Part shown: positions 46,901 to 49,900 of the stretch, piece after piece
Layout of the letters: every line of letters begins with the position of its first letter
Numbering within the stretch: position 1 is the stretch's first letter
Assembly (NCBI GenBank): GCA_013265495.1
Contig: MU057744.1
Coordinates: forward strand, 1,192,356 to 1,256,355
DNA: 64,000 nucleotides
DNA from: Vicugna vicugna
Taxonomy: Eukaryota
Direction: 5' to 3'
Notes under the pieces: model-generated
What the model saw: the letters and a program-made list of their open reading frames with translations, nothing else
The model's database searches: none
Told to the model about the DNA's origin: nothing
Program-made: the position numbers and the translations under genes

Positions 46901-49900
46901 ATGTGGGTTAAAAAAGTTTTAAGCGAATTCTGCTCCGTGGAAAGACCCCGCCGAGCACGCCCTGCGTCTCCATTTCAGGAGAGGGTCCTTCCGTGAGCTC
47001 AGTGCGGTTATGGATACCTTTGGGACCCAGCCCTTTTGGCTTTGATGTCCCAAGGCTAAAGCTGTTCAGAGCTCTCTCCCTGACGTCCTGGGGTCAGGAG
47101 AGCTCAGGCTGGTTGTTCAGGGACTGGAGATTTTGCTTCCTCGACCCCCAGATTCCCGCTACTAACCTGCTCGATGTTTCATGACGCGTGCATTTTTGAC
47201 TAACGCTGTCTCCCGTTATCCCTGCAGTAGACTCAGCCTGCCGTGTGAGTCTGTGTGAAAACTGTGCCCGAGGTGTGAGCTGACCCATCGTGTGCCCCCG
47301 CCACGCGCTCGTCTTGTCCGCCCAAACCTGGAATCCGCACCCCGTCCAGCCCGCCGTCCCCGCATCGCCCCGCGCCCCGCCGCACCCGCCGTGTGTCTGC
47401 CCGTCCTGGCGACAGAGCCGCCCTGTTTACCTATTGTGTTTTACAGGCTGAGACAGCGGCTAACAGGATATGTAAGGTTCTTGCTGTCAATCAAGAGAAT
47501 GAGAGGCTGATGGAAGAATATGAGAGGCTAGCGAGTGAGGTAAAGGAAATGGGTCCCGCAGTCCTGTCCATCCCCACCCCGGGGGCGAGGCCCAGAGAGT
47601 GCCCACGGATGTCAGTGTGTTTTTTTACCTTTGCATTCGTCGTCTCAGATGGAACAAAAGTAGGAAAGTGCACTTAGAGCTCAGGGGACCATGACTGTTG
47701 GCACAAATGTAGTCCCTGTGGTCTCTCTGCCCACGGCGAGGCGCAGAGGTAGTCTGCGTGTTTTAACAAGTAGGACGTGATTCCATTCTCAGCTCTGCGC
47801 CTCCGGGGTCGGGCTCCCCTAGAGGACATCGCATTCCTTGTTTCTTTTTTCCTGCTTCACTGGCTACTGACATCACATGGGGTTCGCCCCACATTCAGAA
47901 TCCCGGCTCCACGCCGTGACCCAGCCTCAAAGGAGCTTGTCTGGACTGTACTGAGACGTGGCTCCGCCCTGCGTGTGTCTGTAAATATCTAGGGGGACCT
48001 ACAGGGAAGACAGAGCCCTCCGTCCCAGACAGCTGAGTGTCAATCTCCAGGATGCCTTTCTGCAGCACTTCAGCCCGATTCTTGGGCCGACGAGCACTTC
48101 CACGTGGCTCTTCCTTTTGTTCTCCCGCGAACACAAATAGAAGCCATCTCGTCCCTGCCACTGCACCACCCGTGCTCCCCATGCCGGGTGTGGGCTGAGC
48201 GGCGGCCAGGCCACCTCCTCTCTGGGCTGAGGTTCGTCACAGCGACAAAGCCAGAGACCAAGGCGTCCTCTGCCTTAATTCAGCTGACCTTTGGCCTGTG
48301 CCGGGCACAGTATCAGGGCCCTTGGCGTAAATTCCCCAAGACATGGTGGATGTTAGTCCAATCTAATGATAACGTTTGTATTTGCTGCTGCTGGGGGGAG
48401 GTTTTGTCTGGCAGCCGGTGACCGACATCAGGGTTGAAGGATGTCCAGGACCCAGGACAGTCGGTCCTCAGTAATTGCAGCCCTCCTTTTCTTACTTGGT
48501 CCTCATTTATCCTCCTCACACCCTAAGACTGTGCAGGGCACTTGTCAGACCTCGGCAGTAATTCAGGAGAAGGCGGTCACTGCGTCCTCAGACATCACTC
48601 CCATGTTCACTTTTTTTTAATGGCGGTCCTGGGGATTGAACCGAGGACCTCGTGCACGCTAAGCACGCGCTCTACCACTGAGCTACACCCTCCCCCTGCC
48701 ATTGTCACTTTCATCATGCGGCTTTCGTCATGCTAGCTATTCAGTTAAAATATACTTTGGCCTTGAGTCTGTCCCAGATTTAACAATACTTTGGTCTAGT
48801 AAGTAGAGGCACTCACTAGATTTGAGCTTATTTAAAATAGAAATGCCCTTTAAATGAAACCCATTTTTTCCCCAATTTTTTTTTAACACCACATTTCCGC
48901 CATGTCAGGTTTTGGTTTTTGTTTTTTCATTTGAAAGCTCCATCCAGCATGTGTCTGCTAATGTCTGGTCCCTGAGTTCCCTGTAAATGTCCCATTTTTT
49001 GTAAAACATGACTCGTGCTGACTCTGAGTCCTCGGCCAGTGCGTGGTGCCCTGGGGTGATGGCGAGGGGCCCTGGGTGGACGCTGGGATTTCTGTTGGAG
49101 CCGCAGTGCCTGGAGGGGCCTCTCCGCTCCTTTCTGTCGGGGCTGTTTCAGTCACACGTCTGTGATTTTAGGAACATTCGGTCCCCCTGTTACAAACTGT
49201 TAGTTGCCTCTGTTTTCTAACGGCAGGGAGGTTCCTGGTGTTTTCAGCCCTTTGCGTGTGTATGTGTCTTGTGAGCAGCTCCTGGAATGGATTCGGCGCA
49301 CAATCCCCTGGCTGGAGAACCGGACCCCTGAGAAGACCATGCAGGCCATGCAGAAGAAGCTGGAGGACTTCCGGGATTACCGTCGGAAGCACAAGCCACC
49401 CAAGGTGCAGGAGAAGTGCCAGCTGGAGATCAACTTCAACACCCTGCAGACCAAGCTGCGGATCAGCAACCGGCCGGCCTTCATGCCCTCCGAGGGCAAG
49501 ATGGTGTCGGTGAGTCAAGGCCCTCCCCTACGGGCCGCTGAGACGGGGGCATCGGCCGCTCTCTTCAGTTCCTGGATGTAGTTTTGGCCCTGCGGCCGCT
49601 CCATGCTGGACATTCTCCCTGCCTTCCTGCAGTTCTTGACTCCTCCCTGCTGCTGCTGGGGTCCCCGCCCAGGGCAGACCTCTCGCAGACACTGGCGACA
49701 AGTGGTCCCTGGGCTCCTCCCCGCCTCCCTGCCTGGCCACGCCCTCCCCTGCCAGCCAGACAGCCTTGAGATGGGCACCAGATCATGTGCCCTCTGTCCC
49801 CGTCTCACCTTCTCCAGGCTTAGTCCTGCCTCCATCTCCCTCTTGGCACCATCAGTTTCTCCTGCTCTGCTGAATCCTTCACAGCCACACAGGAAGCGCT

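Follow-up and report, generated by a model that had tools for sequence, protein, structure and literature searches.

The stretch of DNA analyzed here, a 64-kb window of Vicugna vicugna contig MU057744.1 ("the window" means all of it), carries on its forward strand exons 1 to 18 of a mammalian ACTN2 gene, recognized by splice sites and by the match of the spliced protein. We tentatively favor the reading that the T's at third codon positions (T3) of exon 9 are kept by a splicing-related synonymous constraint at the RNA level, and that the six stop codons which they form in the reading frame resulting from the loss of exon 8 (the skip frame) would be a by-product of it. In this mammal, whose codons mostly end in G or C (high GC3), exon 9 escaped the T-to-C shift of exons 8, 10, and 11, and its A- or G-ending codons changed as often as theirs. 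The habit of taking T over C is exon-wide, not confined to stop-making sites. The stops look like a consequence of the exon 9 peptide together with these T-ending codons, not a purpose-built safety device.

The 18 exons were placed by tblastn against the 894-amino-acid (aa) protein P0055, with AG/GT sites used to adjust their boundaries. Spliced together, they encode 762 residues without interruption, 752 of which are identical to P0055; this protein scored in a search with exon 10 beside proteins named alpha-actinin-2 by their source, and exon 10 is 100% identical to those. The window gene is ACTN2, since its translation matches alpha-actinin-2 proteins along the whole length, exon by exon. 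Exon 9 presumably follows directly on the last exon encoding the CH2 domain and covers the charged stretch between CH2 and the first spectrin repeat.

Composition of exon 9

The GC3 of exon 9 is 15/31, against 26/28 whole codons in exon 8 and 70/77 codons in exon 10. It is the lowest of the 18 exons (binomial p = 1.1e-6 versus the rest of the gene), exon 7 being the next (15/27) and the remaining exons lying between 0.69 and 0.98. Where a codon ends in a pyrimidine, exon 9 has T in 10 of 12 cases and the other 17 exons in 58 of 364 (p = 1e-6); where it ends in a purine, A is found in 6 of 18 versus 47 of 329 cases (p = 0.04). The exon also has the minimum C content (0.13) and the maximum purine content (0.67) of the 18 exons, and its anomaly is mainly a deficit of third-position C.

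The flanks of exon 9 are GC-rich on both sides. GC is 0.76 at 47300-47399, and the 200 nucleotides (nt) upstream (47247-47446) show a GC of 0.67 with an observed/expected CpG ratio (CpG o/e) of 1.03; the ratio is 0.48 in exon 9 itself. At the 100-bp scale, GC around the exon swings between 0.39 and 0.76. We considered a repeat insertion as the origin of the GC-rich upstream flank and ruled it out, within the limits of a genome search that returned the self match only.

Exon 7 (42689-42770), the other neighbor of the regulated exon 8, has three stops in the frame starting at position 3 in addition to its low GC3. It is unlike exon 9 in that its low GC3 is common to the paralogs (14/27, 17/27, and 21/27) and its flanks are AT-richer.

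Stop codons in the skip frame

Loss of QKI causes ACTN2 exon 8 (8a or 8b) to be skipped, which leads to a stop in exon 9, with rescue by an inhibitor of nonsense-mediated decay (NMD) (Chen et al. 2021, PMC7782589), and the same sequence of skipping, exon 9 stop, and NMD has been restated (Montanes-Agudo et al. 2023, PMC10202634). The evidence comes from human cardiomyocytes and mouse heart (PMC7782589, PMC10202634). In the window, joining exon 7 to exon 9 gives the junction GAA GGC TGA, and the six skip-frame stops of exon 9 begin on that junction (Table 1). The exon 9 peptide has many Glu, Lys, Asn, and Arg residues, and this content supplies the nine codon junctions at which a T3 yields TGA, TAA, or TAG in the skip frame, six of which are used. 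Given that peptide, taking T over C at nearly every pyrimidine-ending codon yields the six stops automatically. The opposite shift, from a double-sized insert, terminates within exon 9 as well. Beyond exon 9 the skip frame meets seven more stops, in exons 10, 11, 13, 14, 16, and 17, so the exon 9 stops are not required for NMD. At least nine further exon junctions lie downstream of the first premature stop (47449) in the window.

Whether six stops exceed chance depends on the null. The exon 9 peptide was back-translated at random with synonymous codons from three codon tables, 20,000 draws each. The usage of the gene's other exons, rich in GC3, gives a mean of 0.96 stops (P of six or more = 0.0001), uniform synonymous choice a mean of 2.84 (P = 0.026), and the usage of exons 8 and 10 of L011, an ortholog rich in A and T at third positions (AT3), a mean of 3.61 (P = 0.08). 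The gene-wide GC3-rich table is the one null that the observed count beats. When exon 9's own codons are shuffled within amino acids, 5 to 9 stops result, and six or more are reached with P = 0.90. Within the exon, T stands at 6/9 stop-making junctions versus 4/9 other codons where T is possible (p = 0.64), the four T's that form no stop being those of codons 11, 12, 13, and 15. Therefore, the stops are expected given the codon make-up of exon 9, and the real anomaly is this make-up; no excess of stops over a composition-controlled null was found, either by the within-amino-acid shuffle or under L011 usage.

An earlier, sequence-only reading of this stretch had listed the six stops with their positions and the junction codons, the use of six of nine possible sites, the GC3 values of exons 8, 9, and 10, the single skip-frame stop of exon 10, the termination of the third frame inside exon 9, and the GC-rich flanks. 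Our recount returned all of these. It had also named the link from QKI loss through exon 8 skipping to a premature stop and NMD, in agreement with the papers cited above (PMC7782589, PMC10202634). Its description of the exon 9 GC3 as anomalously low is borne out by the rank among 18 exons, with the qualification that exon 7, which it left unmentioned, is low too.

Silent-site change relative to a distant ortholog

Five loci in metagenome contigs, one of them (L011) of ACTN2 type, matched a fully degenerate pattern of the invariant exon 9 peptide; 0 loci matched it in genome_contigs and 0 in viral_contigs. An 83-aa shifted-frame open reading frame, used as a query for the third positions of other species, gave eight word-sharing candidates, none of them scoring. 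Besides the main exon 8 and exons 9 to 11, L011 has an alternative exon 8, and its amino acids are identical to those of the window across exons 8 to 10. It comes from a distantly related vertebrate, because exons alone align between L011 and the window. Its exon 9 shares all six stops with the window, at codons 1, 5, 9, 18, 25, and 30, and has a GC3 of 16/31, which is ordinary beside the 13/28 of its exon 8 and the 38/77 of its exon 10.

By comparing the two genes codon by codon, we found that synonymous codons differ at 13/30 sites in exon 9, compared with 16/27, 43/71, and 24/44 in exons 8, 10, and 11, respectively. The contrast lies in the pyrimidines. Nine of the 10 T3 sites of L011 exon 9 are still T in the window, versus 0/10 in exon 8, 1/14 in exon 10, and 1/10 in exon 11 (2/34 pooled, p = 7e-7), and pyrimidine transitions, which occur at 27/65 sites of the other exons, are absent from exon 9 (0/12, p = 0.006). 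Purine transitions occur at 7/18 sites in exon 9 and 29/77 elsewhere (p = 1.0); the comparison of the two kinds within exon 9 (0/12 versus 7/18) gives p = 0.024. Moreover, exon 9 retains fewer of its G3 sites (8/13 versus 32/34, p = 0.012), and the A/G flux is balanced there (4 A>G and 3 G>A), whereas elsewhere 28 A>G face a single G>A. Several of the tests in this report were picked after the data had been seen, and p values of about 0.02 to 0.04 are to be read loosely.

The 7/18 purine changes show that exon 9 is not mutationally cold; U was held at its pyrimidine-ending codons while the neighbors moved to C. As far as these alignments go, the silent constraint would be confined to pyrimidine-ending codons, and the T3 preference of ACTN2 exon 9 appears to be old, since the distant vertebrate has it at the same codons.

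Paralogs and other exon 9 sequences

An exon 10 search of the window's own assembly gave three paralogous loci, and the 10 kb upstream of each was used to map exons 7 to 10. We take them to be ACTN1, ACTN4, and ACTN3 on the basis of diagnostic residues; they are distinct from the window gene, as their exon 9 residues differ. Exon 8 measures 86 nt in all three, and exon 9 has a GC3 of 26/31, 23/31, and 24/31 and 0, 2, and 2 skip-frame stops in ACTN1, ACTN4, and ACTN3, respectively. The ACTN4 paralog (L007) keeps two intact exon-8 copies (L007:3621-3704 and 4682-4765), and the ACTN1 paralog has a decayed second exon 8 (L006:7236-7156, minus strand) with an in-frame stop (VGTLRPDGKAM*PNVSCHCHAFLGAQK). 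The four non-ACTN2-type exon 9 sequences from the metagenome contigs carry 2, 2, 1, and 3 skip-frame stops. One of these four, L010, has an exon 9 GC3 of 16/31 but is rich in A3, not T3, and in the ACTN1 control pair of L006 versus L010, T3 is kept at 2/5 exon 9 sites. Therefore, the T3/stop pattern is neither a property of the family nor a general companion of the exon-8 arrangement, and by this comparison the T-over-C preference is specific to ACTN2.

In another non-ACTN2-type metagenome contig (L009:509-889), an additional intron-like insert containing stops interrupts the exon 10 equivalent, an exon structure that differs from the window's.

Splicing context of exons 8 and 9

In front of exon 9, 25 intronic nt still align with L011, where the other exon alignments reach just 2 to 11 bases into the intron. 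When exon 9 is folded together with 30 flanking nt at either end, it does worse than 190/200 dinucleotide shuffles in both species (z = +1.58 and +1.55), so a stable conserved RNA hairpin in exon 9 was ruled out; the predicted poor folding hints at an open exon. Consensus sets of exonic splicing enhancers (ESEs) are 63-82% purine with a C content of about 0.11-0.2, show slow synonymous-site change, and have GAAGAA among their strongest motifs (PMC4054783). The window exon 9 is in line with this composition and contains GAAGAA at codons 23-24. In ESE sets, TGA is the one common stop word, TAA and TAG being nearly absent (PMC7086181 section 13), and four of the six skip-frame stops of exon 9 are TGA and thus enhancer-compatible.

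Lek et al. are said to have dealt with actinin alternative splicing in 2010. Exons 8A and 8B of ACTN2 and ACTN4 have been termed mutually exclusive (bioRxiv 10.1101/2024.10.05.616792), and in the general scheme of such a pair, having both in or both out shifts the frame (PMC11062102). We found no second (alternative) exon 8 between exons 7 and 9 of the window by tblastn, blastn, or a scan of open AG...GT/GC segments of 62-119 nt, 45841-45926 being the only copy. The segment 44655-44723 was rejected as a candidate: its match is weak (E = 8.5), it lacks a donor site, and it runs into a stop. L011 has an alternative exon 8 at L011:282-365, about 1.2 kb upstream of its main exon 8, and two pairs of 894-aa proteins differing solely in this part (P0055/P0060 and P0058/P0062) imply one as well. 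It seems that the window lineage lost the alternative exon 8 or that the assembly lacks the copy; introns 7 and 8 (42771-47446) contain no N's. Intron 7 also holds a 130-bp tandem duplication (45509-45767, 2.0 copies, 97% matches) that ends 74 nt 5' of exon 8 and sits within a block of 0.71-0.72 GC.

A reviewer passage in supplement file 3 of PMC7782589 gives ACUAAY as the QKI core consensus. Such words lie in the intron that follows exon 8 in both species, those of L011 (1650 and 1701) forming a pair 51 nt apart, and 5.1 kb of the window contain four of them versus about 1.6 expected from base composition. Their placement fits the published statement on QKI sites flanking exon 8. Fourteen sequencing runs (six RNA, labelled bovine (gut) metagenome) hold 5/9 sampled words of exon 9 and its splice flanks; these matches are no evidence of expression, species, or conservation.

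Table 1. Coordinates of ACTN2 exons, candidate signals, and shifted-frame stops in the window
Feature	Position	Strand	Remark
Exon 7	42689..42770	+	82 nt, ends in phase 1; second lowest GC3 in the window
Exon 8	45841..45926	+	86 nt, not a multiple of 3; CpG o/e 1.26; sole exon-8 copy found in the window
ACUAAY word (candidate, QKI core consensus)	46320..46325	+	intron 8
ACUAAY pair (candidate)	47161..47204	+	intron 8; words at 47161 and 47199, 38 nt apart
GC-/CpG-rich intron flank	47247..47421	+	single copy, directly 5' of exon 9
Acceptor region of exon 9 (polypyrimidine tract and 3' splice site)	47422..47446	+	25 intronic bases still aligning with L011
Exon 9	47447..47539	+	93 nt, 31 codons, phase 0 to 0
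Skip-frame stop 1	47449..47451	+	TGA (GCT/GAG), on the exon 7-9 junction; matching position in L011
Skip-frame stop 2	47461..47463	+	TAA (GCT/AAC), inside the word CUAAC; T3 absent from 7/7 non-ACTN2-type exon 9 sequences examined
Skip-frame stop 3	47473..47475	+	TAA (TGT/AAG), inside the word GUAAGG; T3 absent from 7/7 non-ACTN2-type exon 9 sequences examined
Skip-frame stop 4	47500..47502	+	TGA (AAT/GAG)
Other shifted frame, first stop	47508..47510	+	TGA; frame entered if an extra 86 nt is included
Skip-frame stop 5	47521..47523	+	TGA (TAT/GAG)
Other shifted frame, second stop	47529..47531	+	TAG
Skip-frame stop 6	47536..47538	+	TGA (AGT/GAG)
Exon 10	49279..49509	+	231 nt, 77 codons; one skip-frame stop

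At the 5' end of the gene, a run of 146 N's (7627-7772) stands just upstream of the coding start of exon 1 (7829) and represents an assembly gap or else withheld sequence.

Discussion

According to the above-described analysis, the stops of exon 9 follow its codons, and what needs explaining is why T was kept. We infer that U is retained and C avoided through an RNA-level constraint on a short, purine-rich, C-poor, and weakly folded exon. The conserved acceptor of exon 9 must join the regulated exon 8, so this constraint would concern splicing-enhancer content or accessibility. The stops would truncate an mRNA lacking exon 8 at the junction, and they are probably not what selection sees.

Several observations weigh against this explanation. 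The silent divergence of exon 9 as a whole (13/30 versus 83/142 codons in the neighbors) is not significantly lower (p = 0.16), and the cross-species evidence is a single ortholog without an outgroup, so that the direction of change cannot be polarized. Shortness alone is no explanation, because other short exons of the gene (79-88 nt) have a GC3 of 0.56-0.93. The TAA sites at codons 5 and 9 are left unexplained by classical enhancers, given the depletion of TAA and TAG in ESE sets, and they hold the two most ACTN2-specific T's. There is also a lean of T toward stop-making junctions, not significant in either species (6/9 versus 4/9 in the window, 6/8 versus 4/10 in L011), and in L011 the stop-making junctions of exon 9 carry T more often than those of exons 8, 10, and 11 (6/8 versus 9/33, p = 0.035). 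The lean is consistent across both species, although weak.

The sequence-only reading had supposed that the synonymous sites are constrained, and had looked to the silent divergence of exon 9 relative to its neighbors as the arbiter. The first part stands for pyrimidine-ending codons, where T3 retention and the missing pyrimidine transitions speak for it, and for the exon as a whole the divergence, not significantly lower than that of the neighbors, comes out near the unfavorable side. It had offered two causes, a fail-safe for NMD or overlapping splicing elements, and had allowed that the extra stops may be a by-product. The by-product view agrees with the within-amino-acid shuffle; the fail-safe does not fare well, as described below.

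The main rival is a neutral history combining compositional patchiness and CpG decay, which we regard as possible, though on the unlikely side. Ancestral ACTN2 would have been AT3-rich, as L011 is; GC-biased gene conversion or a CpG-island-like state would have raised GC3 patchily and missed exon 9, and CpG decay would keep T before G, leaving the stops and the T's without function. This fits the unremarkable composition of exon 9 in L011 and the chance of six stops under L011 codon usage. Six of the 10 window T3 sites, as read from the codon alignment, precede a G, where C would give CpG, and the exon is itself low in CpG. The sharp GC variation over 100 bp, the ordinary rate of change at A3/G3 sites, the overall divergence that is not significantly reduced, and the low GC3 of exon 7 in its AT-richer flanks point the same way. 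However, the flanks of exon 9 are GC-rich on both sides, immediately upstream above all, and the upstream flank is CpG-rich and single copy. T-to-C changes in exon 8 did create CpGs, so CpG decay alone is not protecting T here. The absence of pyrimidine transitions beside seven purine transitions inside the same exon also speaks against a neutral account, and the poorer retention of G3 suggests a different equilibrium and not just a low mutation rate.

Under a selected fail-safe, which would carry the ambush hypothesis over to splicing, the T's would be kept as stop-makers so that the exon-8-less mRNA, the product when QKI is absent, ends at once and is cleared by NMD. The first stop does sit on the exon 7-9 junction, and the pathway has experimental support in human cardiomyocytes and mouse heart (PMC7782589, PMC10202634). 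The six stop-forming T's are unchanged between the window and L011 (0/6 changed versus 13/24 other degenerate codons, p = 0.024), and in the window T stands at the stop-making junctions of exon 9 far more often than at those of exons 8, 10, and 11 (6/9 versus 2/33, p = 0.0004), with the smaller L011 contrast given above. At other sites, however, exon 9 is T-rich as well in the window (4/9 versus 7/66, p = 0.02), as it is not in L011 (4/10 versus 26/61, p = 1.0). The L011 contrast at stop-making junctions is heterogeneous (exon 8, 2/5; exon 10, 1/18; exon 11, 6/10), with exon 10 as its driver. In L011 exon 11, to which no such rationale applies, T thus occupies 6/10 stop-making junctions; the count falls to 1/11 in the window, which kept only one of the 10 L011 exon 11 T3 sites.

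Within exon 9, the non-stop T3 sites are kept too (3/4, versus 6/6 stop-forming sites; p = 0.4, from the single ortholog), and T is not significantly enriched at its stop-making junctions by either the site comparison or the codon shuffle. A single stop is enough, and the skip frame meets seven more downstream. ACTN1, ACTN3, and ACTN4 share the 86-nt exon 8 yet have few stops or none, ACTN4 even keeping both alternative exons 8. A figure legend of PMC7782589 names the human premature stop as TAA; if this is the first human stop, human lacks the junction TGA, which is then not universal. The supplement text of that paper, as available, has figure legends and no exon 7-9 junction sequence. More generally, tests of the ambush idea that control for composition are disputed (PMC5909447, PMC3700767). 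The fail-safe reading is not supported, and we hold it to be unlikely.

In its strongest form, the array of six stops would be an ancient, ACTN2-specific kill switch. All six of its U's would have been fixed at identical codons since before this mammal and the distant vertebrate split, the exon-8-less transcript (the default without QKI) would be ended at the junction and destroyed, and ACTN2 output would thereby be tied to the muscle splicing program. The ACTN2-only TAA words might double as decoys, CUAAC as a branch-point-like or QKI-like one and GUAAG as a 5'-splice-site-like one. We consider this quite unlikely. Translational pacing, in which U-ending, wobble-read codons would slow ribosomes just after the actin-binding domain and aid CH2 folding before the rod, is very unlikely: a U-versus-C-specific constraint with free A/G exchange fits wobble decoding and exon 9 presumably lies directly after the last CH2-encoding exon, but paralogs of like domain layout lack the pattern.

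Comparison with known systems

The closest known system is the unproductive splicing of the essential exon of ACTN2 itself (PMC7782589, PMC10202634), with the same gene, an 86-nt exon, and a skipped-frame stop in exon 9. Here, exon 8 has a length that is not a multiple of 3 and the premature stop precedes the last exon junction by a wide margin. In their available parts, those papers describe a single premature stop, with no discussion of stop number, codon composition, or conservation, and human ACTN2 has a second alternative exon 8 where the window has none. In mutually exclusive exons policed by frameshift and NMD (PMC11062102; bioRxiv 10.1101/2024.10.05.616792), both shifted frames fail, as both end in exon 9 here; however, L011 and this genome's ACTN4 carry two exon-8 copies and the window one, which makes its exon 8 a plain essential exon.

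With the ambush hypothesis (PMC5909447, PMC3700767) our exon shares a cluster of out-of-frame stops that would end shifted reading early. In our case it is splicing that shifts the frame rather than slippage of the ribosome, and the excess vanishes once exon 9 codon composition is controlled. Synonymous constraint by ESEs (Caceres and Hurst 2013, PMC4054783; Savisaar and Hurst 2018, PMC6169883) resembles our case in the purine-rich, C-poor, short exon, the apparently slow change at some silent sites, and the tolerance of TGA. It differs in that pyrimidine-ending codons alone are frozen here and that two TAA words are not enhancer-like, and the splicing role remains putative. A survey of titles and the beginnings of abstracts found no published description of clustered stops or constrained silent sites in exon 9 of ACTN2. 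ACTN2 goes unmentioned in bioRxiv 10.1101/2025.03.21.642423.

Significance

The case illustrates in detail that peptide content and codon composition can together give rise to a conspicuous group of hidden stops, and the within-amino-acid shuffle, the same-genome paralogs, and an ortholog of different base composition are the controls that separate composition from selection. The freeze of U versus C beside free A/G exchange is a specific signature that can be tested cheaply. The expression of ACTN2, a cardiomyopathy gene, depends on exon 8 inclusion; if there is functional constraint on the silent sites of exon 9, synonymous variants in this exon could affect splicing or expression, although clinical interpretation normally disregards such variants.

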